Shown: positions 14,724 through 34,412 of the stretch, one piece after another | How the letters are laid out: each line of letters begins with the position of its first letter | How positions within the stretch are numbered: position 1 is the stretch's first letter | Assembly (NCBI GenBank): GCA_016861205.1 | Contig: BOKX01000001.1 | Coordinates: 264,539-328,538 of the forward strand | From: Patescibacteria group bacterium | Lineage (GTDB): Bacteria > Patescibacteriota > Microgenomatia > UBA1400 > PJMF01 | Direction: 5' to 3' | DNA length: 64,000 nt | Notes under the pieces: model-generated | Database searches by the model: none | The model's input: only the letters and a program-made list of their open reading frames with translations | Told to the model about the DNA's origin: nothing | Program-made: the position numbers and the translations under genes

Positions 14724-14821
14724 CTATTGTTAGTCTAGTATTCGGGGATTCTATCGCAAAGAATTTCCGTCACGATTTGCTTACTTGAGCCTATACCCCA
14801 AACCTTGCTACACTGGCAGAT

Positions 14822-16837
14822 ATGCCTCGTGCTTTGGTTTTGGGTAATGGCCAGTTGTTAGTCAGTTTAGACCAGTTTGGGTTTGTCAGGGATTTTTACT
14901 ATCCGTATGTGGGACTTGAGAACCACACCATGGGCGAACGACACCGGATTGGGGTCTGGGTAAACAATCGATTTTCGTGGCTGGATGATGGCAGCTGGCA
15001 GATTTCCCTAGGTTACAAACCAGAAACCATGGTCGGCTACTTAGTCTGTAAAAATGAAGCACTCCAGATGAGTTTGGTCATGGAGGACATCGTATACAAC
15101 GAACAAACGGTGTTCATTCGCCAAGTTGATATTTACAACCATGCTGAAGAGTGTGTCGATATTCGCTTATTCTTCCATCAAATTTTCTATATTAGCGAAG
15201 CTAAAAAGCGAAATACAGCTTTCTTTGATCCAACACACACTGCCATGGTGCACTACAAAGGTCGACGGGTGTTTATTGTGAATGGTCGGACTGCTGATGG
15301 TACCACCATGGATGATTACTCGGTAGGTGCCTACCACTACGAGGGCAAAGAAGGTACTTTCAAAGACGCTGAGGACGGTCAACTGAGTCGGAACGCAGTT
15401 GAGCATGGTTCTGTTGATTCGGTGGTGCGGTTTAGTGTGAAGTGCCAAGGCAAAGAAAAGACAACGGTCTATTACTGGATTTGTGCCGGTAAGTCACTTG
15501 ACGAAGCCTACACTGCCAACGAGATGGTCATGTCGAAAACTCCAGCTGGTATGCTCCACTCGACTGAACAGTACTGGAATGCTTGGTTAAACAAACAAGA
15601 ACTACATACCGAAAAGAACTTAACCGCAATCCAAAAGAAACTTTTTGATACATCGCTATTTATTTTACGAGCTCATGTCGATAATCGTGGGAGCATTATA
15701 GCGTCGGCCGATAGCGAGATGATCGAGTATGGCAAAGACGACTACGCCTACATGTGGCCTCGTGATGCGGCATTCATTGTCTCGACACTTGATAAGGCTG
15801 GCTATCATGAAGCCACCAAGCAGTTTTTTCTATTCTGCAAAGACGTTTTACATCCAGACGGGTACTTACACCATCGCTTCCGATCTGACCAAAGCTTAGG
15901 TTCAACCTGGCATTCTACTGTTTCTCAGCAAGAGTGGTTGAAGGATAAAATTTTGCAGTTGCCGATTCAGGAAGATGAAAGTGCCAGTGTTTTGTTTGCC
16001 TTATGGAAACACTACGAGGCAACCAAAGACTTAGAGTTTATTGAGAGTTTGTATAAGCCATTTATCGAGAAGATTGCTCGTTTTTTGATGAACTATCGTC
16101 ATAAAGAAACAGGCCTCCCATTGCCCTCATATGACCTTTGGGAGGAAAAGAACGGTGTTTCAACGTATACCTGTGCGGCTGTGTATGGTGGGTTGATGGC
16201 TGCTGCCCAGTTTGCTGAACTCCTTGGCAAACGCAACCATATGCGAGAGTACAAGAACTCAGCTAAAAGTATTAAGCAGGCAGCCATTGACCATTTGTTT
16301 CATCCCAAGCTCAATAGTTTTATTCGTCACGTCACTATTGAGAATAACCAAGTCGTGCCGCATGAAGTGGTTGATGCCAGTTCTTTGTTTGGGTTGTGGT
16401 ACTTTGGCATGTTAGATCAAGATGACGAGCTACTTATGAAAACCCAAACTGAGGTAACTGCTCGCTTAACAAACCCCGATCCCGTGGGTGGTGTGATTCG
16501 CTATGAAGCCGATGAGTACTTTAAGTCTACTGACCGGTCAAACCCGTGGATTATTACTACGTTGTGGCAAGTCCAGCGACTTCTCTACCGCCATCCGGTT
16601 AAGTTGGAGGACCTAGAGTTGGTTAAGAAAACGCTCGATTGGGTGGTTCAACACATGTATCCATCTGGGGTGTTGCCCGAACAACTTAATCCGCATACTG
16701 GCGCATCACTGTCGGCGACCCCGCTCGTTTGGAGTCATGCCGTTTATGTCGAAACAGTTTTGTTATACTTGGATGCGCTGCATGAGCTTGGACTGTGCGA
16801 AAAATGCGGGCCACTTATGGTGCCTCATGAGCTTTAG
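14822..16837 (+). CDS. GH15-family glucoamylase/glucodextranase-like protein (prokaryotic type with N-terminal beta-sandwich)
   Basis: Hallmark YDLWEE motif, (alpha/alpha)6 catalytic region, 671 aa. Confidence 0.82.
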   Translation: MPRALVLGNGQLLVSLDQFGFVRDFYYPYVGLENHTMGERHRIGVWVNNRFSWLDDGSWQISLGYKPETMVGYLVCKNEALQMSLVMEDIVYNEQTVFIRQVDIYNHAEECVDIRLFFHQIFYISEAKKRNTAFFDPTHTAMVHYKGRRVFIVNGRTADGTTMDDYSVGAYHYEGKEGTFKDAEDGQLSRNAVEHGSVDSVVRFSVKCQGKEKTTVYYWICAGKSLDEAYTANEMVMSKTPAGMLHSTEQYWNAWLNKQELHTEKNLTAIQKKLFDTSLFILRAHVDNRGSIIASADSEMIEYGKDDYAYMWPRDAAFIVSTLDKAGYHEATKQFFLFCKDVLHPDGYLHHRFRSDQSLGSTWHSTVSQQEWLKDKILQLPIQEDESASVLFALWKHYEATKDLEFIESLYKPFIEKIARFLMNYRHKETGLPLPSYDLWEEKNGVSTYTCAAVYGGLMAAAQFAELLGKRNHMREYKNSAKSIKQAAIDHLFHPKLNSFIRHVTIENNQVVPHEVVDASSLFGLWYFGMLDQDDELLMKTQTEVTARLTNPDPVGGVIRYEADEYFKSTDRSNPWIITTLWQVQRLLYRHPVKLEDLELVKKTLDWVVQHMYPSGVLPEQLNPHTGASLSATPLVWSHAVYVETVLLYLDALHELGLCEKCGPLMVPHEL

Positions 16838-16846
16838 AAAGGCGAA

Positions 16847-17773
16847 ATGCCGAAGTATGTGATTGCTGTTGATGGTGGAGGAACGAAGACTCACGCATTG
16901 TGCGCTGAAGTGGGTGGCGGAGTAATTGGTGAGGGAGTATCTGGGCCAACGAGCCTGGCGGCTACAACTGTAGGCGCAGCTAGTTTTAATTTAAAAGAGG
17001 CTATCCGCCAAGCCACTGAAAAATTGCCTCCAGAGACTATCTACGAACGTTTAATAATGGGTTTGGCGGGCATGGATACAGCAGAAGAAGAAAAGCAAGC
17101 TCGGGCAGTGTTCACTGATGGCTTAGCACATGTGCAAGTAAATGAGTTTGTACTAGTTAATGACACTCTCATCGCCCTGGAAAGTGGTAGTAATGACCCC
17201 AACTCGCTAGTGGTGATTGCTGGGACTGGCTCGAACTGCATGGGTCGAAATCAAGAAGGCCAAATGGCAAAGGCTGGTGGTATGGATTATTTACTGACCG
17301 ACCAGGGGTCAGGATATGCGATTGGTCGTGCGGTTTTGCGACAAGCAGTTAAAAGTTTTGATGGTCGAGGAGCCAAAACTGAACTTGAACAGTATGTCTG
17401 CCAGCACTTTCGGATTGAGACATTGGCAGACCTTAAGACAAAGGTATACAACCCGCCCCTGAACAAAACCGAGGTGGCTGAGCTGGCTCAACTGGCACTG
17501 CGCGCCTACGACCAGGGTGATGAAGTTGCCAAGCGCATTTTTGAGCTGGCCGGTGATGAGCTCGTTTGTATGGCGAAGGCGGTTCTAACAAAGCTCAATC
17601 TGCTGTCACGACCAGCCACCTGTGTTCTGGCAGGAAGTATCACTAAAATTAGCTACTTCAATGAACGCCTGAATCGCGAGTTAACAGCCCTGAATCCACA
17701 GTTAACTATTGCGGTTCCTACTCAGGCCCCGGTTCACGGTGCTCTCGAGATGGCGCTGCGTAATCTGGTATAA
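16847..17773 (+). CDS. BadF/BadG/BcrA/BcrD-type ATPase; N-acetylglucosamine/sugar kinase-like
   Basis: N-terminal VIAVDGGGTKTH phosphate-1 motif of the ASKHA superfamily. About 308 aa. Confidence 0.78.
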   Translation: MPKYVIAVDGGGTKTHALCAEVGGGVIGEGVSGPTSLAATTVGAASFNLKEAIRQATEKLPPETIYERLIMGLAGMDTAEEEKQARAVFTDGLAHVQVNEFVLVNDTLIALESGSNDPNSLVVIAGTGSNCMGRNQEGQMAKAGGMDYLLTDQGSGYAIGRAVLRQAVKSFDGRGAKTELEQYVCQHFRIETLADLKTKVYNPPLNKTEVAELAQLALRAYDQGDEVAKRIFELAGDELVCMAKAVLTKLNLLSRPATCVLAGSITKISYFNERLNRELTALNPQLTIAVPTQAPVHGALEMALRNLV

Positions 17774-19339: not shown

Positions 19340-21283
19340 CTATCCAGCTCCACCACCACCGCCGCCACCGCCGCCGCCACCACCTCCAGATGAACTGCCG
19401 GATGAGCCGGCGCCAGTGGCGCCATAACTGGCATTAACCGATGAGCTAAGTGAGTTGAGCGCTGATGAGAGGGATCCGAGGCTGCTAGAAATGTCACCAC
19501 CACTGGCACTTGAGTAGCCAGCCCAGTACAGGGTGGCGACCTGGGTGTCTTTGGTGTTGAGTTGAATAGGCAGCTGACTCAAGGCTTTGACTGAAACACC
19601 CAGGAGTGTGCCATAGACCAAGTACTGTTCCCAAAGGATTATCGAGTCGATGGGATACTCTTTGGTTTTTTGATACTCTTGGAGATGTTTTTTGAAAGCG
19701 ATCCAGCCTGCTGCTTCGGTAGCACCTTCCAGGGTGCGTTTCTCTTTGTGTGCCATCATAAAAATTGAAACCATAAACCAAACAAAACTTGATGCGATGT
19801 TAACAAGTGCAGCTCCCAGCCCCCAGCTCCACGCATCTGAAAAATTGGATACGCTAAAGAAGGCCAAGCCACCTGCTAAGATTGCCAAAACTAAATTGCG
19901 TATGCCAATGCTTTCCTCATGAGCAGTTCTATCGAGAAATCCGTCAGACAAATTAGCTTTGAGAGCGACTTCCTCCAAAGACTGAAAGAATACCCGAGTA
20001 CTTGTGGGATGTGTTTTGCAGTACTGCGTGATTTTCTTAAGTGGAATGACTTGTTGCTTGGGATCTTCATCAAACGCCTCAGTTTTGACTCTGTCAACTA
20101 AAAATGAATAGATTTTTTGCTCGACTGGACCAACTGTCTTGAGGTTGGGCTTATCGGTTGGTGCTAAGTAGTATTCCCAGTCTTTAATCAGGAATCCTTT
20201 TCGTTCTTGGCTGCGGACAAACTTTAGGACTCGGTGGTGAACGAGGTTTAAGATACTGGCTGTAAAGCTGCGGGTCGACAACGTTTTTTGAGCGGACATC
20301 ACTTGTTCAACTTGAGCTGGCGAAAGTTCGCTCGGTGGTTCCCACAAACGTTCGCTGGGATTGACCGATGGTAATCGTGTTTCTTTGTGGTGGTGCCAAA
20401 ATCGGACCAAGAGTTGCCAGCCAACCCAAGCTTGGACTGCGATCGCCACCAAGTTGAGTACTGCCAAGCCGACCGCTGTGCGGCGGGCAGTCGCTTGTTG
20501 AAGTTTGGTCTGCGTGATGAACTCTGCCTCTTGCTGGCGAATCTCAGCCTGGCTACTGGTTCCGGGAGTTCCGTTAACAAAAGTGGTTGCTGGCAACAGC
20601 AGGCGCCCCTCGAAAAATGTCCCGGCAGTCAGATTGGGCGTTGTGAAAGTAACTTCTTGGGCAGAGGGGATGCTAACGGTTCCGTTCAGTGGCCCGTGGG
20701 CCCATGCTTGAATTTGCTCACCCGGAACACCTGCAGGCAGTTGTAACTTGACTCCCACGTGATTCTGGGCGATTTCCCAGTCACTTCCGACCCATTGCCA
20801 GTACAACTCAGCGATATCCGAGTGTCGGGTGACCGCATTTTCGACAGTGTAGCTCAAGGTAAAGGTTTGTGAGGTATCGCTTAGGTTGTAAAACCACTTT
20901 ACATAGTACTGATCAGTGTCTTCAGTCACGTAAAAACTGCCAGCACGTTGAGATATTTCTTCGTTATCTGCAGCTGGGGTTGTTGGCCGATAGCAGTTCT
21001 GCTGATCGCATAGCTGGAATTGAGTCAGTCGGTACGGGACTGTTCTACCAGGATTTTTTGATTGATCAGGATTTTTAGAAATATAAAGATATGCGAAACT
21101 AAAGCTTCCATCAAACAGATACTGACGTTTTTCACTGACGTTCATACTGCCATCAGGGTGCAGTTCAGCGTTGATCTGCACCTGATTAATGGCGTATGAC
21201 TTGGCAGCTGCTGGTTGAGGTAGAAGCAAGCTGACTCCAATGACCACAATCGTAAGTAAAAACGCCAAAAATTTTCGCTGCAT
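19340..21283 (-). CDS. DUF2207-family membrane protein with poly-glycine C-terminal tail
   Basis: Signal peptide. N-terminal YxIxxxxIxAELxPDGSMNVSE...FDGSFSF pattern typical of DUF2207. Multiple TM segments in the C-terminal third. Terminal GSSGSSSGGGGGGGGGGGGGAG. Confidence 0.7.
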   Translation of the reverse strand: MQRKFLAFLLTIVVIGVSLLLPQPAAAKSYAINQVQINAELHPDGSMNVSEKRQYLFDGSFSFAYLYISKNPDQSKNPGRTVPYRLTQFQLCDQQNCYRPTTPAADNEEISQRAGSFYVTEDTDQYYVKWFYNLSDTSQTFTLSYTVENAVTRHSDIAELYWQWVGSDWEIAQNHVGVKLQLPAGVPGEQIQAWAHGPLNGTVSIPSAQEVTFTTPNLTAGTFFEGRLLLPATTFVNGTPGTSSQAEIRQQEAEFITQTKLQQATARRTAVGLAVLNLVAIAVQAWVGWQLLVRFWHHHKETRLPSVNPSERLWEPPSELSPAQVEQVMSAQKTLSTRSFTASILNLVHHRVLKFVRSQERKGFLIKDWEYYLAPTDKPNLKTVGPVEQKIYSFLVDRVKTEAFDEDPKQQVIPLKKITQYCKTHPTSTRVFFQSLEEVALKANLSDGFLDRTAHEESIGIRNLVLAILAGGLAFFSVSNFSDAWSWGLGAALVNIASSFVWFMVSIFMMAHKEKRTLEGATEAAGWIAFKKHLQEYQKTKEYPIDSIILWEQYLVYGTLLGVSVKALSQLPIQLNTKDTQVATLYWAGYSSASGGDISSSLGSLSSALNSLSSSVNASYGATGAGSSGSSSGGGGGGGGGGGGGAG

Positions 21284-21731: not shown

Positions 21732-21977
21732 ATGTCTGACATTAACATCAATCTCAATTTAAATGCTATCCCTGAGTGGTTTGCTCTGGTGGTTGAGAAG
21801 TTCCAAGAACTCAGAGGCGTCGAGTTCCTCTATTTGATTTTAGCGATTATTTTCCCACCACTAGCAGCATTCTTAAAAGTTGGGATCAGCACCCAATTCT
21901 GGATCAACTTGATCTTAACGATGCTCGGCGGATTGCCAGGCCAGATCCACGCTTTGTGGTTGGTGCTGTTTTGGTAA
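21732..21977 (+). CDS. Pmp3/YqaE (UPF0057) family small membrane proteolipid, with ~30-aa N-terminal extension
   Basis: LILAIIFPPLAAFLKVG...INLILTMLGGLPGQIHALWLV closely matches the Pmp3/YqaE two-helix signature. Confidence 0.75.
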   Translation: MSDININLNLNAIPEWFALVVEKFQELRGVEFLYLILAIIFPPLAAFLKVGISTQFWINLILTMLGGLPGQIHALWLVLFW

Positions 21978-22000: not shown

Positions 22001-24652
22001 TTAACGGTACAAATTCTGTAAGTCACCTTGGTAGATAGCGGTAGCAAACCAAGCCCAGTTTTGCAGGTAGTACTCGTCTCCTTCATACCAATACGCAGCT
22101 CCGTCTTGAGTAGTTGTGTATGTTGGTAAAAACTTCTCTTTGAGAATCACCTGAGCTCGTTCTGGATCAGTAATAAGAAAGACTGGTAAGTTCATAATGT
22201 AGGCATAGCGTTGCGACTTCGTTTGGGGCACCGCGTCATGCGAGTACACGTCGACCACACCACCCTGGGTGTGTTGCCAAACTAAAAAGTCAAGACTTTT
22301 GAGATAGTCAGCCGCCCGATAATCTTGATTCCATTGATAATCAAGATAGATTTTCCAAGGAATCCGAAAGGCATTGTACCCATAGTTTGAGTCGTCAGGT
22401 TGCGGTTTGGCAGACGCCACAAATGAACCCAAGTTCTTCTCGTATCTGCACCACTCGGGTGGCAAAGAACTGGAGTAATTTTTATCGAGCAAGGTTGCTG
22501 AGCAGCTTTTCAAAACTGCGTAGCTTGAATCCAAGACACTTGACCAGTCGTGATCTTGATCGACAACAGCAAAAATTCGATAAGCGTAAGGTGCTAGATA
22601 TGATGGGTTGAGTGTAACGTAGTCTGCCGAGTCAGCCCAGTTGCCCGCTGTTACAAAGGAAAACCGTTGATCACTGTACACGTTGTACTCCCAGATATCT
22701 TTAATTATTTGCTGGGCGTCTTCATAGTAGCGAGGCTCATTCCACCGCTTAGCCGCAAACAGCAAGGCCAACGCAATATCTTGGTCGGCGTCTGGAGCAT
22801 TGCCTTCGTCAATCAGGCGTTGAGATTTGTGTAAGTACTTCCAACCAAATAAATGCGACTTCTTTAACCGCATGTGTTTGTCTGTCCAAGCATAAACCTG
22901 ATCAAATGTTTCTCGATCATTCATCCAAACAGCTCTCAAAAGTGCGTAGGATTGGGCTTCTGAGATAACTGAATCGGATTGCTCAGGTGGTTGAATGTAC
23001 CCCTTCGGATTGAGGAACTTACGTTTGTATGTTTCCCACGAGGGCTGCAGATCTATGCGTTGCTGCTGATACATAACGACCCAATCACCATTGGGCATAG
23101 TTTGTTTCTGAAGTTGGAAATTGGCTGGGAACGTGGGATCGAGACTAAACTCAGCCACACGTTGACTGTTTCTGAGTGCTTGTTTAATCAGCGATTCCTG
23201 TCCTCGGTACGAGATTTGTCGTTGGACTTCAGCCGTAATCATCACGTAGTCAACGTTTCGAAAATCATTGCCAAGTTTTTTCTCGGTGATGTCTGGGTCA
23301 AGCTCAACTTTCCAGAACCAGTCTGCATTCTGAAATGTAGACTGGCCATCTGCCTGCCGATAGGTTAAGTCGAGATAGGCATAAAAATCGATAGCCATGT
23401 GTGAATCACTGGGCACATTTTTTTTGATCCAGTCAACTGCTTGCAACTGAGCAGTGGTCTCATCTTTGGTTAGGTACGTTGTAACTAACGGTCGATAGTA
23501 GTAACTCATGACCGCTACGGCAGCCAGCGCCACCGGCACCCCCAAAATCCAGTGCAGTTTTTGCAGCAACTGGCTGAAGTGACTAACGAGCACGCCAATA
23601 CACAAGCTTAAAAAGGGAATCAAGGCGATCACATAAAAATTGATGACCAGTTTGCCACTGGCTAAGAACAAGACTTGGGGCCAGGTCAGCATGAGTACCT
23701 GCCGACTTTTTTTGCTTTTAATGGCCAACATCACATGGGCAAAAAAGGCACTGTACCCGGCCACAATAAGCCACCAATCCTCTTTCATCCAGTAGGTCAA
23801 GTTGACACGAAAATCGCTAAACTGATGCCAGACTGGAAGGCCACTGCCTCTACCCGCTTGCATTGCCAACGTTCCCAGCAAGCTGACATGTGGATGTGGT
23901 GGGGAAAATGGAGAGCCTGGAGGAAAGAGCTCACCTTTCAACAACGCATACAGCGGATAGAACGAAATGACAGCTCCAGCCAGACAGAGCCACTTGATGA
24001 TGGCTATGGTTCGATGCTTTGGATGTGCATGGCTAGCAACCAACCAGACCATAGTGGGCAGGAAAAAAACCGCGTTCTCTTTGGTCAAACAAGCCAGGCC
24101 AAAAGTAATTGCGCTTACAAAGACACGGCGCAGACGAGATTTGGCCGTCATTACCAACCAAAAACTGAGCAGCACCCAAAAAACCATCAAGTTGTCTAGC
24201 AACAGCCGGCGTTGAAAGTACACGGCTAATGGTGAAACTGAAAACAAAGTCACCGCTACAAAGGCAGCTATTTTCGATCGGCTAATCTTCTTGGTGACCG
24301 CATAGAGAAGCAGTACATTCAAAAGGTGAATGAGTAGCATGAAAACGCGCCCAGAGTTAAGAGCAAAGCCAAAGGTAAACAGACCACCCGTCAAGGCTAC
24401 CCACGCGGCTGTGAAAATCCAACCAAACGGCGCATGGTCATACCAATATGTGTAGGGTGCCAATTTCCCTTGGGTTAAAAAACTCCAAGCCTGCGCGAGG
24501 TAGGTACCTTCATCGTTCTCAAAAAATGGGAAGTGGAACATGTTCCAACCGTGAAAAAACGCAGCTGCTCCTAAGAGGGCCAAGATAAATCCCAGCTCGC
24601 CATGCTGCCATACCCAGGTTTGTAGCTTTTTAAGCAGCTGCATACTGTCCAT
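22001..24652 (-). CDS. Multi-TM GT-C-fold glycosyltransferase (GT39/PMT_2/ArnT-like), N-terminal ~500 aa, fused to a C-terminal glycoside hydrolase family 8-like domain
   Basis: FENDEGTY (DE motif in first extracytoplasmic loop) and about 11 predicted TM helices. C-terminal domain has ISEAQSYALLRAV, DADQDIALALLFAAKRW and NPSYLAPYAY, resembling GH8 (BcsZ-type) signatures. The track ORF starts at 24847, but the likely start is MDSMQ at 24652 (or 24643), 20 nt inside the end of the upstream GT2 gene. Confidence 0.65.
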   Translation of the reverse strand: MDSMQLLKKLQTWVWQHGELGFILALLGAAAFFHGWNMFHFPFFENDEGTYLAQAWSFLTQGKLAPYTYWYDHAPFGWIFTAAWVALTGGLFTFGFALNSGRVFMLLIHLLNVLLLYAVTKKISRSKIAAFVAVTLFSVSPLAVYFQRRLLLDNLMVFWVLLSFWLVMTAKSRLRRVFVSAITFGLACLTKENAVFFLPTMVWLVASHAHPKHRTIAIIKWLCLAGAVISFYPLYALLKGELFPPGSPFSPPHPHVSLLGTLAMQAGRGSGLPVWHQFSDFRVNLTYWMKEDWWLIVAGYSAFFAHVMLAIKSKKSRQVLMLTWPQVLFLASGKLVINFYVIALIPFLSLCIGVLVSHFSQLLQKLHWILGVPVALAAVAVMSYYYRPLVTTYLTKDETTAQLQAVDWIKKNVPSDSHMAIDFYAYLDLTYRQADGQSTFQNADWFWKVELDPDITEKKLGNDFRNVDYVMITAEVQRQISYRGQESLIKQALRNSQRVAEFSLDPTFPANFQLQKQTMPNGDWVVMYQQQRIDLQPSWETYKRKFLNPKGYIQPPEQSDSVISEAQSYALLRAVWMNDRETFDQVYAWTDKHMRLKKSHLFGWKYLHKSQRLIDEGNAPDADQDIALALLFAAKRWNEPRYYEDAQQIIKDIWEYNVYSDQRFSFVTAGNWADSADYVTLNPSYLAPYAYRIFAVVDQDHDWSSVLDSSYAVLKSCSATLLDKNYSSSLPPEWCRYEKNLGSFVASAKPQPDDSNYGYNAFRIPWKIYLDYQWNQDYRAADYLKSLDFLVWQHTQGGVVDVYSHDAVPQTKSQRYAYIMNLPVFLITDPERAQVILKEKFLPTYTTTQDGAAYWYEGDEYYLQNWAWFATAIYQGDLQNLYR

Positions 24653-26024
24653 TTGTGGTAGGTGTACGGTGGAGATTGAGATGGGTGGTTTTTTCCCAGT
24701 TGGTTTTCTGTTGGGTGTGGCGCAAGACAGCGCGTAGAGCACTAAATGCGAGCACCATTTGATATGGTACAAAAGTAAGGACGATGGTGAGGATAACGAG
24801 AACAGACATTCTTTGGTGAAAGTCCTTCGAAAACTCGGTATAGCCAAGTATCTGCACCACCAGTTGGAGTACTAATAAGTAAAATGGATACATGACTAGC
24901 AAAGTTGCAATCACGGGTAAATCAATAAAAAACGTAGCTAAAGAAATCATCACTAACACAAAGTTCAATGCGTTCAACTGTGCCAATACTAAAAAGTATA
25001 AGGCAAACAGTCGCTTTTTGGGATTGTGAAAGGCTTGCCACTTCCGCTCAAGCAAGATTTGCAAGAAACCCTGATTCCAACGCGTGCGTTGTTTGACAAG
25101 ACTTGCGAGTGTGCCAGGACTCTCCTCCCGCGTCACTAAATCCGGGTCATACACGATTTGGATCGGGTAGTTTTGACTCGACAGTCGCAATCCCATCTCC
25201 GCATCTTCAGTAAGACAGGTATTCCAACCACCGAGTTTTGTTAGCACCTGCTTTTTAATAAACACCGTGTTCCCACCGAGAGGAACAACGCCCATTCGGC
25301 TAAATAAGTGCAGGGCAGATTTGTACCAGAAGTAGTACTCCAGCACATTCAGGGCTGAAAACCAGGTCGTTCGTAAGTTTGTAAGTTGCACGCCACCTTG
25401 CACTGCGCTGGGCTGCTTTGTTAAAAAGACTGTGTTAACCACTTGGAGTATCGCTGTTTGTGGCTCGTCTTCAGCGTCAAAGACACCGATCACGTCATAC
25501 TTGGCTGCTTTTAAGCCAAAGTTTAAAGCACTTGGCTTGTTTGATTCCAAGCTCGTGAAACTCAAGACTTTAAAATTTTTGACCCTAAGCTGGGCAATTG
25601 CGGCTCTAGCACTACGAAGTGTCTCTTTATCATCAGATTTGCACACCACTAACACCTCCCAAAGGTGGGCAGGATACTCAATGTTAGCGATAGATGCCAG
25701 GGTAGTACCAATGACTTCGCTCTCAAATCGAGCCGGAATTATGATCGAAAACGTGGTTTGAGGTGGTAAAGCAATCTTTGGCGGAGCATCTGCAGCAAGC
25801 TTGTTGGGATCTTCCCAACCATACAGCATCCAGAACAAGGTAAAAATACCTTGAAAACTGAGCGCAAACGCCGTTATGAGCAGACCTATTTTTATCGGAA
25901 GCAGCCAGTAATCCCCTTGCAGGATCACGCTTACTAAGGCTGTACAAAACAAGGTGACTAACACTGCTGTAATAGTCACCAAAAAGATAGTTATCTTAGT
26001 TTGTTTCCTGGGCAGGACTTTCAA
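24630..26024 (-). CDS. Processive family-2 glycosyltransferase (cellulose/chitin/PNAG-synthase-like)
   Basis: Two N-terminal TM helices. DAEDEP (DxD-like), TED motif (LTEDAEMGLRL) and QxxRW motif (QRTRWNQG). Further C-terminal TM helices. Confidence 0.85.
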   Translation of the reverse strand: MKVLPRKQTKITIFLVTITAVLVTLFCTALVSVILQGDYWLLPIKIGLLITAFALSFQGIFTLFWMLYGWEDPNKLAADAPPKIALPPQTTFSIIIPARFESEVIGTTLASIANIEYPAHLWEVLVVCKSDDKETLRSARAAIAQLRVKNFKVLSFTSLESNKPSALNFGLKAAKYDVIGVFDAEDEPQTAILQVVNTVFLTKQPSAVQGGVQLTNLRTTWFSALNVLEYYFWYKSALHLFSRMGVVPLGGNTVFIKKQVLTKLGGWNTCLTEDAEMGLRLSSQNYPIQIVYDPDLVTREESPGTLASLVKQRTRWNQGFLQILLERKWQAFHNPKKRLFALYFLVLAQLNALNFVLVMISLATFFIDLPVIATLLVMYPFYLLVLQLVVQILGYTEFSKDFHQRMSVLVILTIVLTFVPYQMVLAFSALRAVLRHTQQKTNWEKTTHLNLHRTPTTNGQYAAA

Positions 26025-26255: not shown

Positions 26256-28568
26256 ATGCCCAAACCAGAAAAAGCTCCACAACCTGTTAATCGTAGTGAT
26301 GCAATTGAAAGTTGGTTGCAAAGATGTGAAGCAGGTAAGCCTGGATTCATAGAAATGCATCAGTACACGGAAGAAACGTTTCGTGCGATCAGTCCGGATC
26401 TTTTGCAACGTCTGTACGCAATGATTGAGCGGCTGATTGCTTATGAGCACTTCACTTGGCAGTTACCAACGGGTTGGCTTGAGTGGGCCAACCAGCGCGC
26501 TCAGTTACCCACCGAATCTGGCTTCAAAGCAGCAAGCGAGGTGCTCCTTTGGGCGGCAGAAATGGGGACGATGTGCGGTGTATATCTGGCGGCTATGCGC
26601 CAACTAGAAACTATTTTTCGTGATGCATCTGAACTGACACAAAAGCAGTCCCGTAGACTGCGATCATCCGAAGAGATACTTGCTTTGCAGATTAGATATG
26701 CAGAAGTGATTCTGTATGAGAGGCAACCCTGGTCACTACTCCGGTTGACTCCTCACTGGATCGGTTTATTTTTACCTGAGGTAGCTGATCAAGGTTTCGA
26801 TATTAAAGGCTATGATAAGTGTTTTTCGGTCGGGCAGATTTTAAGAGCTCATGCCAGTCGTATTCAAGATGGCAAGAGACGCTTGAATGTAAATGAGCTC
26901 AAAGAGCTCTATGGATTGGTACTCAGCATGCTAAAGGTCGAACAGTCGAGGCTGGGCACGATTTATCCAAACTACAATTTTACGGCCGGCTTGTTAAGTA
27001 CGGCCAGCGGCAGCTATGCCTACCCATTAATTGAAAAAGATCGTTCATGGATGGCACATGTCAAAAATGCAGATCAGCGTGAGTACCTACTAGCAGGTGG
27101 TCAGTTAATGAAGTTGATCAGACTGTTTCATACAGATTGGTACCTATCACTTCTCAATGAAGACGCTCGATTTCACACTGAGGCAGTAGCCATCTTTGAC
27201 TATGTCTACGCTGCCAATGAAGAGAGCGCAAAAATGCTCGTCGAAGAGGCAACAACTGCTCTTGCTCTTTATCCAGAGAAATTTGGGTTCAAAAAAACCA
27301 GCGATGCTGTAGTTTCAATTGCCCAGTGGTTTCTGAACACCCATGTGAATGACCTGGATAGAGAGTCTGCAGACGCTGAAGTACTGTACAAGTCTGACAA
27401 GCTTAATTCGCTGCAGGAACAGGTGATTTCACTTTTGATAAGTTATCACTTAAGCCTATACAACGAGCGTTTGTTGATCGGAGCTACAGGTATCACTGCG
27501 CTCAACTACATTGAGGAAGGTGTTACGCTGCCCGACGCTCAAAAATCACTGGAGTCCATTGCCAGTGCCTGTCAGCAAATACACTTGTTACACCAAAAAC
27601 AACGTAAAGCTCAAGGTACATATCAGCGCAGCGGGCATGTCAACATAGAGGATGGTCGTGATCAAGATGCAATGATGCATCATTTAGTGCCGAATCAGGC
27701 GGATATCGAGTTAACATATCAAGTCAGACAGAACTATGTGATGGCGAAAGTTTCACTTTCTGATTATGAAATTAATAGGCAAAGTATTCCTGATGCTGAT
27801 AACGCGTTATCAATTGAAGAGCTGGAGGCACAAAAGTTAATTGTGCAGTTTGCGGTCGACTTATCAACTTCTCCGGCTGAGTTTGTTTTTGAAGTGTATG
27901 ATCCTGAAGATGTCTTGCCTGAAAGTCAGGCTATTTGGGCAGCTCTACTAGCAGCTCAGCTGGAAGGATGGCTGGCTGAGTTGAAGACAGAGATCGCAGA
28001 AAACCCCATTACCGATGAGGTTGTTTTGCTTGATAAAGGTACACTTGCAAAAAAAACTGGGCAGATTCCGACTAAACCTGCTCCTGCTACTGAAAAGCGC
28101 AAAGCGTCAGGCAATGGTGCGAATGGCACAGGCTCAAGTAACGGCAACGAAGCAGATGCCTTACCAGCATTTATTGAAGCTGGTCGCCGGTTGATGTACC
28201 CGACCAGCATGATGCTGGCACCGGCTTTGGAAACTGAGGTAACAAAAAGTCGTGGTAAAGGTAGCCGAGCAGATGAGCTAGCGATTTTGTCGGATTTCGT
28301 GACTGAGTTCAATGCGAATCCTGCCAAGTTTCACTCTGAAAAAGTTACTAAAGCTGTTCGAAGTGCCAAAGCGGTTGGCCCAAATGGTGAGTTGATCTGG
28401 CGCATAAAACGAGGTGATTACCGGATTTTTGCCGTCTCACTCAATCGGTCGCAAGGCATCATCGTAGAGGTTGATCGCAAAAGTGATGAAACGTACGAGG
28501 ACATGTCTGGGCTCAAAGACAAAGCACACAAAGCTGTGACAGCACTACAAGTAACGGCGCAAAACTAA
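26256..28568 (+). CDS. Large hypothetical protein (770 aa) with a C-terminal RelE/ParE-like toxin-fold domain
   Basis: The last ~95 aa (ANPAKFHSEKVTKAVRSAKAVGPNGELIWRIKRGDYRIFAVSLNRSQGIIVEVDRKSDETYED) fit the RelE/ParE pattern. That pattern is the R-x-GDYRI-[IF]-[YA] core followed by I-x-I-x-[RH]-[RK]-x-D. No P-loop and no other recognisable domain in the first ~670 aa. A Gly/Asn/Ser-rich linker precedes the C-terminal domain. Confidence 0.6.
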   Translation: MPKPEKAPQPVNRSDAIESWLQRCEAGKPGFIEMHQYTEETFRAISPDLLQRLYAMIERLIAYEHFTWQLPTGWLEWANQRAQLPTESGFKAASEVLLWAAEMGTMCGVYLAAMRQLETIFRDASELTQKQSRRLRSSEEILALQIRYAEVILYERQPWSLLRLTPHWIGLFLPEVADQGFDIKGYDKCFSVGQILRAHASRIQDGKRRLNVNELKELYGLVLSMLKVEQSRLGTIYPNYNFTAGLLSTASGSYAYPLIEKDRSWMAHVKNADQREYLLAGGQLMKLIRLFHTDWYLSLLNEDARFHTEAVAIFDYVYAANEESAKMLVEEATTALALYPEKFGFKKTSDAVVSIAQWFLNTHVNDLDRESADAEVLYKSDKLNSLQEQVISLLISYHLSLYNERLLIGATGITALNYIEEGVTLPDAQKSLESIASACQQIHLLHQKQRKAQGTYQRSGHVNIEDGRDQDAMMHHLVPNQADIELTYQVRQNYVMAKVSLSDYEINRQSIPDADNALSIEELEAQKLIVQFAVDLSTSPAEFVFEVYDPEDVLPESQAIWAALLAAQLEGWLAELKTEIAENPITDEVVLLDKGTLAKKTGQIPTKPAPATEKRKASGNGANGTGSSNGNEADALPAFIEAGRRLMYPTSMMLAPALETEVTKSRGKGSRADELAILSDFVTEFNANPAKFHSEKVTKAVRSAKAVGPNGELIWRIKRGDYRIFAVSLNRSQGIIVEVDRKSDETYEDMSGLKDKAHKAVTALQVTAQN

Positions 28569-29200
28569 GACGTTTTGTAACTAAAGGCCACTTGGATGGC
28601 CTTGTACAGGAGCTGAAAGATGTGGACACCATTGGGCATCCGAAGTGTCCCGAGGAATGTTTTTACTTCGGCGTGGTAGCCTTCATTTCGGTAAAACTCA
28701 CGATCCAAGTCCCCTACCACCATCACCGTAGCTTCTAGTGCGATCAGTAACTGAATGTTTTCCCAGGTTGGAGTTTTGTACCTTTCTTCATCCACATATA
28801 CAATTAAACCGGATACATCAGCTAGACTAACTCCCGGATGGATGTCATCCTGGCTTGGTGGCCGACCGTGAGTAAACTGCAGAACTGCGGAATGGCGAGA
28901 AAAATGAGTACATAATTTATCAAAAGTGTCAGTTCTGACTTCTTCCGAATCGGCTGTTTGAGACAGTCGGACGTAGTTCTCAATCATGTCAGATAGCTCG
29001 ATGATGACCTTTTTGGCACGCTCAACGCTCAAGGTACTATCTTGCGGGTCAAGCTTAAGAGCTTGTTCTGAGGTAATAACCGCCTGACCAATATATCGTG
29101 GGTCAAAAGGATTTTCGGGCTGATCGTAAAAAGAGTTTGGTAGGGGTGGCAAAGGCCGTCGAGGATGAAATGGTTTGTTTGCTTTATCGGGGTTGTTCAT
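28565..29200 (-). CDS. Hypothetical protein
   Basis: Start MNNPDK at 29200 preceded by an AGGAG RBS. The track ORF extends to 29227. Pro-rich N-terminus, several His. No known motif. Confidence 0.45.
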   Translation of the reverse strand: MNNPDKANKPFHPRRPLPPLPNSFYDQPENPFDPRYIGQAVITSEQALKLDPQDSTLSVERAKKVIIELSDMIENYVRLSQTADSEEVRTDTFDKLCTHFSRHSAVLQFTHGRPPSQDDIHPGVSLADVSGLIVYVDEERYKTPTWENIQLLIALEATVMVVGDLDREFYRNEGYHAEVKTFLGTLRMPNGVHIFQLLYKAIQVAFSYKTS

Positions 29201-29366
29201 ACAGTAACTCCTGCTACTAGCTAGCACGATCCTACTGTGTTTGAGTCAAGTTTGCTACTGGCTAGTTTAAGCCACGTAGCGCTACCTTAGGTATGTGAAA
29301 ATTTGAGTTCTAATCCGAGTCGGAAGGATCTCATTCAAAAAAAACTATGTTGCGATAATAGTTAAT

Positions 29367-30557
29367 TTAACTAGATATGAGCAGTCCCTCGATAATCCCA
29401 AGCAATTTTCTCTGTACATCAACTATATGAGCTCTGGCCTCTGCATTGAGCTCACTTTGACGATCTTTAATTGTGTGAAATTGTCCGTCTGTAGCGCCAA
29501 TTTGATTGGAAGCTACGAATGTGCGGGGTGCAACTCTGAGGGTGCTTTTTTGCTCTGTAAAATCATGCGTGTAACCAAGTGAACCAAAAATACCTTTGTG
29601 TGTTAGGTTCCATGTTGGTTCATTTGCGGAACGAGCTGGCCGAGCATTTTGGGCTATTTGAAGTAACAAAGCTTGTGATGCCGGGGTAATTTCGCGATGT
29701 TTTTGCAAATATTTAGATACGTTTCTAACCCGTTCTTCCTGATCTAAAGGCAAGTAGCGATTGTAATTATCCAACTCAAAATTAGTCATACAGCTGGCAA
29801 TTTCTTGCCAACTCATTTTCCAAAAGCTCATGATCTCACTGAGTAGTTGCTGGTCATCTCTGTCAATAGTTGGGTTCAGGTCAGTTTGCTTGAGAATAAT
29901 TGAAGAGGTTGTTTTATCAAGCCCCACATGTGGGTAGACGCCCTTTAATATATCAAAAGAAATCAGAATGGTTGGGTCCCACAGCACATGTTTGAAGCTT
30001 GGCTGGCGTTGTAACTCATGTGACAGATAACCAGTGCTCTGCATTGATTCTGGTATGCCATAAACGTGCCAGTGCATCTGTGGATAGGTGGTGGCGTACG
30101 GCTGATGATGATCAGCTTCACCTGGGCCAATATGCTGGATAACATAGAGCTTTTTAAGCGGATCTTGTTGTTCAGCTGCTGCACATATATTGGCTGAGAT
30201 AGCTGCATTAATCGCATCAAACATTAGTGTGCGAGCATCATATGGTAACTCATCCAAACTATGCACTAAACAATTGGAACCTTTTGGGAAACAGTTCAAC
30301 AGTAAATCATACGCGGAATTAACTGCATTTTTTAAGTAAAAAAAGAGGCCATACTGCTCTGTTCCAGGCAAAAGTAAGGCTGTTCCATTCTCAACCATGT
30401 CCCTTAAACCAAGTTCTAGTATGTCTTCATAGGAAGCATTCCGCAACATATCTAGGGTGGCGTGTTCAAAGTTCTTAATTAAACCTGTGTGGTGGAGACG
30501 TGGTACGGCAACCTCCCGTCGATGACTAGCTAGAACTTCAAATGATCCAAAACTCAT
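29367..30557 (-). CDS. Hypothetical protein (His-rich; possible HIT-like/GalT-like MHWH motif)
   Basis: Likely start MSFGSF at 30557 (the track ORF from 30605 would overlap the ChbG gene). Contains DHHQPY...QMHWHVYG. Function unknown. Confidence 0.45.
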   Translation of the reverse strand: MSFGSFEVLASHRREVAVPRLHHTGLIKNFEHATLDMLRNASYEDILELGLRDMVENGTALLLPGTEQYGLFFYLKNAVNSAYDLLLNCFPKGSNCLVHSLDELPYDARTLMFDAINAAISANICAAAEQQDPLKKLYVIQHIGPGEADHHQPYATTYPQMHWHVYGIPESMQSTGYLSHELQRQPSFKHVLWDPTILISFDILKGVYPHVGLDKTTSSIILKQTDLNPTIDRDDQQLLSEIMSFWKMSWQEIASCMTNFELDNYNRYLPLDQEERVRNVSKYLQKHREITPASQALLLQIAQNARPARSANEPTWNLTHKGIFGSLGYTHDFTEQKSTLRVAPRTFVASNQIGATDGQFHTIKDRQSELNAEARAHIVDVQRKLLGIIEGLLISS

Positions 30558-30595
30558 GGAGCATATCCTACAAAATCTTCTCAATAAGACAAGGG

Positions 30596-31408
30596 TCAAA
30601 TACACAATAGATGTGTATACGTGGTCAGGTGGATATTATTAGACCTAACGAGCTCTAGGATAAGATTAGAAGTTAGAATTGCTAGCTCTGTCTCGCGTGC
30701 TTCACGATAACTACTTAGCAAAGCTAAAGAAGCATCATTGTAACCGGGATGCACCATAAGTTCAGTGACAGCCTCGGTTAATGACGTCAAAATTTCCTGA
30801 AGTACTTCAAGGCTTGCCTTACCAGCAAAAAATTTAGTTAGTAAGGCGTCTGTCGTGCGAACGAAAAGTTCCTCTGAGTGATGCTGTTTTTGAAAGGTCT
30901 GGCTTGTTGTGGACATTGTAGGTGTGTAGACACTGGCACTTCGAATTGGTAAATCATGTTCACTAGCCAGGTACTGCATAACCTGAAAAAGGGTCGGATG
31001 TTTATATGAAATATGATGATGTGAGTCCAAATGATCGGGATATACATTGCAGGCAATCATGGCTGCAATTTGGGCTGACCACTCATCGTAGACTTGGTTA
31101 GGGTCTAGAAATTCAGCCTTACTTCTGATTTCAGCTAGACTGTGAAAATGACCATTGGTGTTAACAAGAGATGGAACCTTGTCAGGCGATAGCAGAGGTT
31201 GTCCAGTTGTGAGATTAAGATGGGTACCTATAGCTAGTTTAGGCGTTTGAGCTTTGGCTAGAGTAAGATCACTTTCAACACCCGGTACATTCATCATGGC
31301 TGTTGTTGATGTGACAATACCTTGCCTGTGAGCAACTCGAATTCCTTCAGAAACTTTTCTAGTTAATCCATAGTCATCGGCATTTACGATTAAGCATTTT
31401 TCTGGCAT
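30596..31408 (-). CDS. ChbG/YdjC-family carbohydrate deacetylase
   Basis: N-terminal NADDYGLT motif and the HLDSHHH metal-binding motif of YdjC/ChbG. Confidence 0.8.
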   Translation of the reverse strand: MPEKCLIVNADDYGLTRKVSEGIRVAHRQGIVTSTTAMMNVPGVESDLTLAKAQTPKLAIGTHLNLTTGQPLLSPDKVPSLVNTNGHFHSLAEIRSKAEFLDPNQVYDEWSAQIAAMIACNVYPDHLDSHHHISYKHPTLFQVMQYLASEHDLPIRSASVYTPTMSTTSQTFQKQHHSEELFVRTTDALLTKFFAGKASLEVLQEILTSLTEAVTELMVHPGYNDASLALLSSYREARETELAILTSNLILELVRSNNIHLTTYTHLLCI

Positions 31409-31419
31409 AAGTGAAACGT

Positions 31420-32163
31420 TTATATTTTGAACACCGTCAAAATTGGCAGGTGATCAGAGAATGGAATTGAAAGAATTTGTGTAGATACAACCTCTAAATC
31501 TCGAGTGGCTAAAATGTAATCGAGCCGCCAATCCAAAGTTTCTGCATTAAAACCGTGATAGCTAAAAGGTTTTGTGGTCCACGTTTTCTGATCAAATGAT
31601 GGGCCAGCGTTTTGATAGGTGCGAAGCAATCTCTCAACAAGGCTTGAGTGTTCTGTCAGGTTAAAGTCTCCGGTCACTATGGTTTTCTGTGTACATGGAG
31701 TGAGCGTTTCTAAGAAAAGGTTGCTCTCACGATTTTTTTCTGATGTTTCTCGAAAACCATCAGAAAAGGAGAGGTGGGTTGTGACAACCGTTACCTCATG
31801 GTCGGGTAGCTGAACATCGCACAAACAGGCTATTCGCCTCTCAAGTCCTTGTGTGTTAGCTGTTTTGGGTTCTGCTTCTTGGATGACCTGGTATCTGAGG
31901 TTTTTTAAAGGAAATTTGCTCAAAATGCAGTTGCCTTGAGTGCGAGGTGGCACTTGATCTGTCCAAGTATGTGCGACAGCGTGGTGCACGTGATAGTTCA
32001 GATTTGTGGCCAAAAACTGGGGCACATCTTTGCCTATATTGGGAAAGTCCTGTGTAACTTCCTGAAGACAAATGATATCTGGCTGATACTTTTCAAGTAC
32101 TTGAAGGATATTCTGTGGTTGCTCATTAACCCAAACATTCCACTGCAAAACACTAAACTGCAT
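31420..32163 (-). CDS. Endonuclease/exonuclease/phosphatase (EEP) family protein
   Basis: N-terminal LQWNVWV...IICLQEV and C-terminal SDHLPI motifs typical of the EEP superfamily. Confidence 0.78.
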   Translation of the reverse strand: MQFSVLQWNVWVNEQPQNILQVLEKYQPDIICLQEVTQDFPNIGKDVPQFLATNLNYHVHHAVAHTWTDQVPPRTQGNCILSKFPLKNLRYQVIQEAEPKTANTQGLERRIACLCDVQLPDHEVTVVTTHLSFSDGFRETSEKNRESNLFLETLTPCTQKTIVTGDFNLTEHSSLVERLLRTYQNAGPSFDQKTWTTKPFSYHGFNAETLDWRLDYILATRDLEVVSTQILSIPFSDHLPILTVFKI

Positions 32164-32176
32164 ATTGTTTATTATA

Positions 32177-33124
32177 CTAGACGATAGTTGAGGAATAATA
32201 CTGCTCAGTTGCGACTCCAGCCAAGACGAGCCCTGTTTCTAAGACGTCATCTAACTGCATCGAGCGTTGTGTCCACCCAACTGAGACTCGAATTGCATTG
32301 ATAAAAAATAGTTCTTTTGCCAACGATGTAGAACCACTAACATTTTTTACCTTTTCATCCAGTTCTAAGATTAATGGTCTCAGGCAAGCTTCGGCCGGCG
32401 CAAAGTTTGGATCGAGCTGATACTCAACATTAAACGTATCGCCACAACTAAAGGTTCCTTGATACCGGTACTCGAATAAATAGAGGGCGCCAGCAAGATT
32501 ATTTAAGGCAGATGATGCCATGTTGTACCCAGTGTAGTTTCCAGGATCAATAGCGTAGTAGTTGTCCTCTTCGCACAAAACATTTCCAGGATGTTCGTCG
32601 CCATGACATAGAACCATGTGTTTTTCTATCTTGTTCTCAAGGGCAATCTGGCATTGTGTTAGTGTCTCATGCAAACATGGGTAAGTAACCCCATTCACAA
32701 TAGTAGGCATATGTGCAAAATTCATGATTTTTTCATTGTGTCGAAGTCGATACAGTGTGTTTAGGGTTTCTAGACGCCAATTCCTAGAAACAACTGTTTC
32801 ATCCATTGATTTGGTAGTTGTATGCCACATAGCATACATGTCGTTAAGAAAGCGTTGCAGGGAATCTTTTGCAAGGTGTGGTTTGTCTTTTAATATGGTG
32901 TTAACTGCTTGGGCTTCTACGCCACGAACAACCAAAAGATGTCCCTCTGAGGTATTGGCTAATCTAGCCTTAGGCATACGTAAATATGGGGCAAGAAGAT
33001 GATAGCCACTAATTTCACGGGCTGGTCTACGTATGAAATGACCTTCGGTTCCCTTCTTTATGTAAAACTGATAAGGACCGCGATCATCGCGATACAGAAA
33101 ATTCGTCAGTTGTTCTCTTGACAT
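32177..33124 (-). CDS. Aminoglycoside-phosphotransferase-like (APH/CotS/choline-kinase-fold) small-molecule kinase
   Basis: Catalytic loop HGDEHPGNVL and downstream YAIDPG (Brenner motif HxDxxxxN ... D). Confidence 0.6.
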   Translation of the reverse strand: MSREQLTNFLYRDDRGPYQFYIKKGTEGHFIRRPAREISGYHLLAPYLRMPKARLANTSEGHLLVVRGVEAQAVNTILKDKPHLAKDSLQRFLNDMYAMWHTTTKSMDETVVSRNWRLETLNTLYRLRHNEKIMNFAHMPTIVNGVTYPCLHETLTQCQIALENKIEKHMVLCHGDEHPGNVLCEEDNYYAIDPGNYTGYNMASSALNNLAGALYLFEYRYQGTFSCGDTFNVEYQLDPNFAPAEACLRPLILELDEKVKNVSGSTSLAKELFFINAIRVSVGWTQRSMQLDDVLETGLVLAGVATEQYYSSTIV

Positions 33125-33137
33125 ACAAAAGTTCGCC

Positions 33138-34358: not shown

Positions 34359-34412
34359 GTACTATATCAATAATGATCGGAAACGCAAGAGACATGGCAG
34401 CTACACGATAGT

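Follow-up and report, generated by a model that had tools for sequence, protein, structure and literature searches.

The stretch of DNA analysed here (64 kb of contig BOKX01000001.1, assembly GCA_016861205.1; below 'the window') carries on its minus strand two overlapping genes, which encode a membrane-bound family 2 glycosyltransferase (GT2) and a fusion of a glycosyltransferase of the GT-C type to a family 8 glycoside hydrolase (GH8). The GT2 gene (24630..26024) was delimited on basis of the open reading frame (ORF), Pfam and a structural model and encodes 464 amino acids (aa) from a TTG at 26024; the public gene call places the start 15 codons downstream of this TTG, giving 449 aa. The fusion gene (22001..24652) is one continuous ORF of 883 aa, supported by Pfam and an AlphaFold2 (AF2) model; its maximal ORF reaches 24847, and public gene calls start at the ATG at 24643, giving 880 aa. 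The stop codon of the GT2 gene (TAA, 24630-24632) lies inside the fusion ORF, and the two genes overlap by 23 nt (24630..24652), or by 14 nt in case ATG 24643 is used. This agrees with the translational coupling that was put forward in an earlier note, made from the sequence of the window. Given the divergent ORF upstream (26256, plus strand) and the convergent Pmp3-family gene downstream (21732..21977), the pair has the appearance of an operon of two genes. Contigs of two independent sequencing runs yielded this locus with matching gene calls and an identical 880-aa product, and the fusion is therefore no artefact of assembly or frameshift. The alternative of a frameshifted pair of separate genes was ruled out in addition by the hundreds of colinear homologues, more than 100 of which show 40-62% identity across both domains. 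The genome is a reduced one, as had been supposed: it measures around 1.15 Mb, and the nearest named relatives of its DnaE (68-70% identity) belong to Woesebacteria, Pacebacteria and other Patescibacteria.

The three domains that were named in the earlier note were all assigned by Pfam. For the GT2 protein the matches were Glyco_tranf_2_3 (E 4e-39) and Glyco_trans_2_3 (E 2e-21). Two N-terminal transmembrane (TM) helices (residues 10-71, 25812..25997; found by hydropathy and as helices 10-36 and 42-71 in the model) precede a cytoplasmic GT-A catalytic domain (residues 89-318, 25071..25760; from Pfam and the alignment to BcsA), and the protein closes with three membrane helices (residues 335-437; model helices 335-366, 371-401 and 408-437) and a WEKTxH motif (24681-24698), which together occupy 24681..25022. 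Translation confirmed the motifs DAED (25467-25478), TED (25203-25211) and QRTRW (25077-25091). The corresponding residues D183-A-E-D186, T272-E-D274 and Q312-R-T-R-W316 align to D246/D248, T341-E-D343 and Q379-R-G-R-W383 of BcsA, and with D132, which is present and aligned as well, the BcsA set of D, DxD, TED and QxxRW is complete. Within 52 homologues, D183, E185, D186, T272-E-D274, Q312, R313, R315 and W316 are invariant, and so are W443, K445, T446 and H448 of the WEKTxH motif directly after the last helix. By analogy with the BcsA and hyaluronan synthase (HAS) families, WEKTxH is possibly the equivalent of the gating loop (FxVTxK/WGTR). Among solved structures the best match by sequence was BcsA (E 2e-9). 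The AF2 model (predicted local distance difference test, pLDDT, 92.9; predicted TM-score, pTM, 0.91) shows two TM helices, the GT-A domain, interface helices and three TM helices, and its best fold match in Foldseek was again BcsA (4p00; E 6e-16, TM-score 0.65 on the query), followed by the HAS of Chlorella virus (CvHAS) and of Xenopus (XlHAS1). The minimal archaeal PcManGT was also among the matches, and folds of polyprenyl-phosphate-sugar synthases, such as GtrB, were absent from the top matches. By its motif set, its TM-flanked catalytic domain and its resemblance to solved synthases, the protein thus falls in the BcsA/HAS/PgaC class, as had been noted before. Pfam and the model showed no PilZ domain, since the protein ends 27 residues past the last TM helix, and control by cyclic di-GMP (c-di-GMP) is therefore not expected. 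Related GT2s in three loci of Chloroflexota (L040, L051, L056) bear one or two N-terminal FHA domains, which suggests that c-di-GMP is replaced there by control via Ser/Thr phosphorylation. Another relative (L060:16-1419) has an N-terminal extension of around 460 aa with multiple TM helices and a DQPP-type motif, lacking a Pfam match, which may represent a second GT-C-like domain.

The AF2 model of the fusion protein (pLDDT 88.3) comprises 11 TM helices (residues 1-395, 23468..24652, minus strand), a small alpha/beta domain on the extracytoplasmic side, delimited by the secondary structure of the model (residues 396-533, 23054..23467), and an (alpha/alpha)6 barrel (residues 534-883, 22004..23053). 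The membrane domain matched Pfam PMT_2 at residues 80-233 with 43 bits (cut-off 26.1), and together with the multi-spanning GT-C fold this places it among the GT-C enzymes of the PMT/ArnT class (GT39/GT83-like, PMT_2), in line with the original proposal. It is not a protein O-mannosyltransferase (GT39) proper, given that PF02366 matched only at threshold (22.7 bits, residues 98-208) and that no MIR domain was found by Pfam or in the model; the nearest folds are nevertheless those of the protein O-mannosyltransferases Pmt4 and Pmt2. The first outside loop contains the motifs FENDEGTY (24500-24523) and YTYWYDHAP (24428-24454), and the motifs RRLLLDN (24191-24211) and K191-E192 (24077-24082) follow further on. 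The acidic stretch E45-N-D47-E48 stands directly after the first TM helix, as in the PMT/ArnT enzymes. To assess conservation, we used 121 fusion proteins for the active sites and, for the gene neighbourhoods, 80 loci that were fetched from a scan of species-representative genomes. In all 121 proteins D47, E48, D72, H73, R148, D153, K191, E192 and E241 are invariant. The small alpha/beta domain was present in 77 of the 80 loci and is also kept in relatives that consist of the GT-C part only. Considering that the loops rich in Lys and Arg (121-127, 169-174, 209-214, 310-314) all lie on one side of the membrane and the FENDEGTY loop on the other, the protein is predicted to have an N-in/C-out topology with the GH8 domain outside the cytoplasm, where the earlier note had looked for it.

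The C-terminal domain matched Glyco_hydro_8 (PF01270) at residues 517-795 with 147 bits (cut-off 24, E 1e-42), has the (alpha/alpha)6 fold of the family with BcsZ and CelA as nearest structures, and contains all three signatures on which it was first recognized (SEAQSY, DADQD and NPSY). The fusion protein did not reach the cut-off of the BcsZ equivalog NF008305 (101.7 versus 299 bits). Glu565 (22958-22960) and Asp623 (22784-22786) align to the catalytic acid (CelA E95, BcsZ E55) and to the Asp of the DxD signature (CelA D152), respectively. Asp623 is invariant (121/121) and Glu565 is kept in 111 proteins, the other 10 having Arg, Lys or Gln. At the position of the base (the D-x-x-R motif in BcsZ) we found Asp in 86, Asn in 31 and Glu in 3 of the 121 sequences. 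The window protein has Asn760 here (22373-22375) and a Glu at position 733 (22454-22456), and the two covary: 29 of the 31 sequences with Asn760 carry Glu733, and sequences with Asp760 carry Asn or Asp at 733. This tight coupling suggests that Glu733 is a relocated base, instead of the site having plainly decayed. The GH8 lichenase 5xd0 likewise has an Asn at the base position, and GH8 subfamilies with a displaced catalytic base were reportedly described by Adachi et al. in 2004. Within a more divergent set, at the species level, around 10 of 47 fused GH8 domains have lost the catalytic acid, and in half of these loci a further glucanase or an intact paralogue is encoded next to it. Trimming, the role that was initially assigned to the GH8 domain, is therefore not its conserved function, as the acid is gone in about a quarter of the species-level relatives. 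Three loci (L015, L020, L038) have tandem GT-C::GH8 paralogues behind one GT2, and in L020 one of these paralogues lacks the GH8 acid and the other is intact. A LysM domain at the C-terminus of one GT-C::GH8 protein (P0378) points to contact with peptidoglycan.

A word-indexed search returned at least 781 full-length homologues of the fusion protein with 40-62% identity. An exhaustive search gave 716 protein clusters (at 50% identity) with E <= 1e-30, and around 100 of the best 150 were colinear fusions. In species-representative genomes at least 597 loci were found, distributed over many classes of Patescibacteria, Chloroflexota, Dormiibacterota and some Actinomycetota. The earlier note had considered the fusion undescribed. 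Our full-text literature searches indeed recovered no paper that describes a GT-C::GH8 fusion or a GT2 plus GT-C synthase cassette; the fusion is, however, far from rare, and its uniqueness was ruled out by the hundreds of homologues already present in public databases, where the family goes by the name 'glycosyl hydrolase family 8'. A GT2 homologue (E 1e-65 to 1e-170) stands immediately upstream on the same strand in around 74 of the 80 loci, covering four or more phyla, and the loci without one are mostly located on truncated contigs. In 59 of 72 loci the frame of the GT-C is already open ahead of the GT2 stop. Conversely, all 3 homologues that were sampled by way of the GT2 had the fusion directly downstream, in otherwise unrelated housekeeping contexts. 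Besides the Dpm1-like domain that is treated below, no other neighbour was conserved in more than 13 of the 80 loci. The three domains even occur on a single chain, GT2::GT-C::GH8, in a protein of 1331 aa that was found on two contigs (P0421; L083:5001-8996). The adjacency across several phyla and this triple fusion support the view, already taken in the earlier note, that the pair works as a single unit for making a glycan. Genes for an extracytoplasmic function sigma/anti-sigma pair, a Ser/Thr kinase and an FHA protein lie next to the triple fusion. Some lineages, among them Streptomyces, Nocardioides, Solirubrobacteraceae and Anaerolineae, have a GT-C devoid of the GH8 domain and retain the GT2 partner, and in Frigoribacterium, Plantibacter and Nocardioides a separate GH8-like ORF lies downstream. 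For these reasons the window fusion is the 'Rosetta-stone' version of a wider GT2 plus GT-C (plus hydrolase) cassette, and the window pair is the minimal two-gene form of a widespread, apparently undescribed module of a synthase and a GT-C::hydrolase. Many records of metagenome-assembled genomes that carry this gene in its Patescibacteria-type form (e.g. L001, L007, L009, L011, L014, L016) are titled 'uncultured Gammaproteobacteria', 'Pseudomonadales' or 'Bdellovibrionales', and the organism labels of such assemblies look unreliable.

The relatives also connect the cassette to lipid-linked sugars. Around 39% of the best GT2 homologues (47 of 120) measure 620-900 aa, owing to an additional GT2 domain fused at the N-terminus. 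This domain (PF00535) can be aligned over its full length with ArnC, AglJ, dolichyl-phosphate hexose transferase and PpgS, all of them polyprenyl-phosphate-sugar synthases, with scores that are in each case below the family cut-off. Such a Dpm1/ArnC-like domain was found, fused or as an adjacent gene, in 44 of the 80 loci, and 36 had none nearby. Genes of the GtrA family were found in 11 loci, those for an amine-oxidase-type flavoenzyme in 13, and in these 11-13 loci the GtrA gene and the FAD oxidoreductase precede the Dpm1-like::GT2 gene in a colinear manner. Such genes were seen upstream of the cassette in L021, L022, L025, L036 and L038, and also in L035, L044, L050 and L061. GT-C enzymes are as a rule supplied by a Dpm1-like protein together with GtrA, and the genes for Rv3789 and DprE1 adjoin that for AftA; by analogy with the latter, the flavoenzyme might act on the lipid-linked sugar and remodel it ahead of transfer. 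The occurrence of these domains and genes in relatives thus indirectly supports a polyprenyl-phosphate-sugar as the donor of the GT-C. The earlier idea of a compact unit for synthesis, trimming and export holds as far as a glycan unit is concerned, but this unit is often three-part, with a Dpm1/ArnC-like synthase, and the lipid-sugar step had been overlooked. Considering that such a synthase is fused or adjacent in more than half of the loci, the GT-C is likely a working lipid-sugar transferase and more than an anchor. From the patterns of residue conservation we conclude that GT-C catalysis is the probable constant role of the family, and that for the GH8 domain the binding of glycan would be constant and cutting optional.

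With respect to the polymer, the associated hydrolases are informative. On the same GT-C the GH8 domain can be replaced by a GH3 N-terminal-type domain (P0467, P0470, P0473, P0485, P0490), and a locus with GH3 on the GT-C (L084) has an orthologous GT2 upstream and a GH5 cellulase nearby. Flanking genes include GH6 (6/80 loci), GH5 (9/80) and GlxA-like genes with CBM4_9 (7/80). BglX, a GH3 enzyme, is said to have a role similar to that of BcsZ in bcs operons (PMC8892547), and the cslA-glxA-cslZ system of Streptomyces makes cellulose in vitro (PMC11022532). Cellulose systems share a common grammar of a synthase, a non-homologous membrane partner and a hydrolase (PMC11022532, PMC8892547), and by this analogy the cassette fits, with the partner and the hydrolase fused. 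The neighbouring genes point to a cellulose-like glycan with a beta-1,4-glucan base as the most likely polymer. As to the beta-glucan or related polymer that was suggested earlier, cellulose is plausible as the product, but the GT2 fails the curated cut-offs for both CelA and PgaC.

We propose, with a probability of roughly 0.55, that the pair is the core of a synthase-dependent surface-glycan module of single-membrane bacteria, in which the GT-C performs a lipid-sugar step and the GH8 domain provides a cleft for the glycan. The GT2, as an inverting enzyme of the BcsA/HAS/PgaC class, would use a cytoplasmic nucleotide-sugar to make a beta-linked chain and pass it across the membrane. On the outside, both the putative catalytic Asp-Glu loop of the GT-C and the BcsZ/CelA-like cleft of the GH8 domain would face the emerging beta-1,4-type chain, which the cleft would hold and, in most family members, also cut. 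To the chain thus held the GT-C would add sugars from a polyprenyl-phosphate-sugar, as branches or as a cap, and in many relatives this lipid donor would be made by the Dpm1/ArnC-like domain that is fused to the synthase. As GT-C enzymes invert beta-linked lipid donors and thereby form alpha linkages, the added sugars would be alpha-linked, and for the same reason it is more likely that the GT2 makes the beta-1,4 chain and the GT-C adds alpha-linked sugars to it. The 11-TM domain probably doubles as the non-homologous 'second partner', a role played elsewhere by BcsB, CcsB and GlxA. In the window version, the Asn at the usual base position of GH8 is paired with Glu733, which may act as the relocated base. 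A more specific variant is that a cellulose-synthase-class enzyme needs a lipid-linked sugar, with the GT-C::GH8 protein priming, branching or capping a beta-1,4-glycan that lies in the BcsZ-like cleft; we advance this tentatively and consider it rather doubtful.

Several observations weigh against the proposed module. Within the 64-kb window no Dpm1-like, GtrA, FAD oxidoreductase, GlxA, GH5 or GH6 gene was found, and the one further GT2 near the pair (33138..34358, 406 aa) is soluble and does not resemble Dpm1. Any acceptor proposed for the GT-C is purely conjectural. GT2s of the QxxRW type include non-processive enzymes, and PcManGT shares the fold. The best curated family of the GT2 is PgaC/IcaA (TIGR03937), which matched near full length, but with 92 bits it stays far below the cut-off of 422; the CelA models TIGR03030 (49 bits, cut-off 699) and PRK11498 (31 bits, cut-off 992) matched around the TED-QxxRW region only. 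In the triple fusion the QxxRW motif is degenerate (QRTDR) and AED stands where TED is expected. The GH8 domain of the window lacks the canonical base Asp, with Asn760 in YGYNAFR at the position of CelA D278 and BcsZ D242(243), and the case for Glu733 as the substitute is one of covariation only. Finally, a GH113 gene (mannanase family) adjoins the cassette in one relative, on account of which the polymer may differ between lineages. This neighbour and the PgaC-like best family match of the GT2 make a GlcNAc-based or mannan-containing polymer a possible alternative.

The lipid linkage can also be read in another way, with a non-processive GT2 that makes a glycolipid anchor, a GT-C that elongates it outside from polyprenyl-phosphate-sugar and a GH8-like domain that measures or trims the product. 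The GT2 would then resemble non-processive glycosyltransferases like the cyanobacterial MgdA, glucosylceramide synthase and PcManGT, and the GT-C would act like MptA/MptB and the Emb enzymes of Actinobacteria, which build their chain outside from the same kind of donor. Such a lipoglycan route is consistent with the weak match of the GT2 to Glyco_transf_21 (21.3 bits, cut-off 21.7) and the precomputed PF13506 assignment of many homologues, with the good fold match to PcManGT (non-processive, with a minimal cellulose-synthase-like fold), with the prediction of only five TM helices in the GT2, with the strong linkage to the polyprenyl-phosphate-sugar synthase domain and GtrA, and with the fact that the carriers are monoderm, lipoglycans being common in such bacteria. 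Yet the best folds of the GT2 are those of the processive BcsA and HAS enzymes, and its invariant C-terminal WEKTxH resembles a gating loop. Moreover, given the inversion of the beta-linked donor, a chain made by the GT-C would be alpha-linked and not the beta-1,4 substrate that is expected for GH8, GH6, GH5 and GH3, and we consider the route unlikely. No more likely, to our mind, is that in the organism of the window the GT-C serves only as a BcsB/GlxA-like partner that stabilizes the channel and tethers the GH8 domain at its exit, transferring no sugar. Every cellulose synthase that has been characterised requires a second membrane protein as non-homologous partner (PMC11022532, PMC8892547), and both the lack of Dpm1-like and GtrA genes in the window and the 36 of 80 loci without a Dpm1-like domain nearby fit a partner of this kind. 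The donor synthase could, however, sit elsewhere in the genome of around 1.15 Mb, and a mere anchor would be expected to show the reverse of the pattern observed, in which nine residues of the GT-C with a putative role in catalysis or phosphate binding do not vary in any of the 121 members, the window protein included, and the catalytic residues of the GH8 domain drift.

The nearest folds of the GT-C, Pmt4 and Pmt2, and the position of its DE motif in loop 1, as in the PMTs, might indicate the glycosylation of a protein or wall polymer, in which the Dpm1-like protein takes the part of Ppm1, the GH8 domain acts in targeting, in the manner of a lectin, and the product of the GT2 is unrelated. 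A logic of Ppm1 plus Pmt is known in Actinobacteria. This would, however, leave unexplained why the gene is almost always paired, and overlaps, with that of a QxxRW synthase and why the triple fusion exists, and considering also the missing MIR domain and the swap of GH8 for GH3, which points to a glycan substrate, it seems very improbable. We disfavour most strongly, as hardly credible, that the fusion is a nutritional enzyme, i.e. a membrane-anchored GH8 endoglucanase feeding on external cellulose or chitosan next to an incidental GT2. GH8, GH5 and GH6 are classical degradative families and Patescibacteria ferment scavenged sugars, but the adjacency is kept across phyla and the genes overlap, many loci have a GT-C lacking any GH8 with the GT2 still present, the catalytic acid is lost in part of the GH8 domains, and the residues of the GT-C are invariant.

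Further genes were noted around the pair in the window. A glycogen-type alpha-glucan cluster (12279..17773) encodes a GT4/GT5 synthase-like protein, GH57, GH15 and a BadF/BcrA-family ATPase. A DUF2207 membrane protein (19340..21283, minus strand) is encoded shortly downstream of the cassette region and ends in a long Ser/Gly tail that includes a run of 15 Gly. Beside the GT2 gene, three ORFs (26256..30605; 770 aa on the plus strand, 220 and 412 aa on the minus strand) gave zero Pfam or NCBIfam matches. These are followed by a gene run on the minus strand (30596..35438), composed of a CofD/YvcK-like gene, the soluble 406-aa GT2, an unassigned gene of 315 aa, Exo_endo_phos and a YdjC-like gene, which may constitute another carbohydrate-related operon.

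Patescibacteria make up a large share of bacterial diversity and are mostly uncultured episymbionts, whose envelope is almost unknown. A two-gene glycan module that is kept in genomes of around 1 Mb is a strong candidate for making a key surface polymer. If the proposed module is real, it would be a fourth design of synthase, partner and hydrolase after BcsAB-Z, CcsAB-Z and CslA-GlxA-CslZ, and the first whose partner is a glycosyltransferase fed by lipid-linked sugar. Should the more specific variant given above hold, it would provide a first concrete molecular form for the long-debated idea of a 'lipid intermediate plus endoglucanase' in cellulose-type synthesis, and Patescibacteria and other monoderm phyla would have a major surface polymer that was not known before. 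With a GH8 site that drifts and a GT-C site that does not vary, the family offers a clean natural case of a hydrolase fold that is kept mainly for binding, and the apparent relocation of the base (Asn733/Asp760 versus Glu733/Asn760) is a testable point in GH8 enzymology. The hypothesis is accessible to ordinary genetics, since culturable Actinomycetota (Frigoribacterium, Plantibacter, Marisediminicola, Nocardioides, Streptomyces) carry orthologous cassettes.

Compared with known systems, the cassette shares with BcsA-BcsB-BcsZ a membrane GT2 with the D, DxD, TED and QxxRW motifs and a BcsA-like fold, a second membrane partner (obligatory in Bcs) encoded beside the synthase, and an extracytoplasmic GH8 nearest to BcsZ/CelA, for which GH3 can stand in, as BglX does in some bcs operons. 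It differs in lacking a BcsB homologue, a PilZ/c-di-GMP module and the outer-membrane BcsC, in having as partner a catalytic-looking GT-C with the hydrolase fused on, in the frequent fusion of a polyprenyl-phosphate-sugar synthase domain to the synthase, and in a GT2 that is half the size of BcsA and below the CelA family cut-off. The apical cellulose system of Streptomyces (CslA-GlxA-CslZ, with LpmP) likewise combines, in a monoderm host, a synthase with a non-homologous membrane partner and a glucanase, and genes for a GlxA-like copper oxidase (with CBM4_9) and GH6 flank some relatives of the cassette. In the window, however, GlxA and GH6 were not found and the partner is a GT-C and not a copper oxidase, and the Streptomyces relative (L076) is a separate locus of GT2, GT-C, Dpm1-like and GlxA-like genes that is distinct from cslA. 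PgaC/IcaA, the best curated family, resembles the GT2 in size, in the 2 + 3 topology of the TM helices and in TED and QxxRW, and these synthases need a small membrane partner (PgaD/IcaD), a trait that the cassette would share. In contrast, the GT2 scores far below the family cut-off, the deacetylase PgaB/IcaB and PgaD/IcaD are lacking, and the hydrolases associated with the cassette belong to beta-1,4-glycan families. The combination of a Dpm1/ArnC-like GT2, GtrA and a GT-C in many relatives is that of three-component extracytoplasmic glycosylation systems (GtrA/GtrB/GtrC, ArnC/ArnT, Ppm1/Pmt, CsbB/GtcA/YfhO, PpgS/Rv3779), but here the trio is joined to a BcsA-class synthase and a glycoside hydrolase, and the window itself shows the GT-C part only. 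Models with a lipid intermediate or primer and an endoglucanase have been proposed for CelABCDE of Agrobacterium (Matthysse 1995) and for sitosterol-glucoside with KORRIGAN (Peng 2002), and are considered unproven (PMC8892547). Like the cassette, these models unite a GT2 synthase, a lipid-linked sugar and an endoglucanase of family 8 or 9 in one pathway; they involve other proteins and propose no GT-C, which makes the resemblance a conceptual one.

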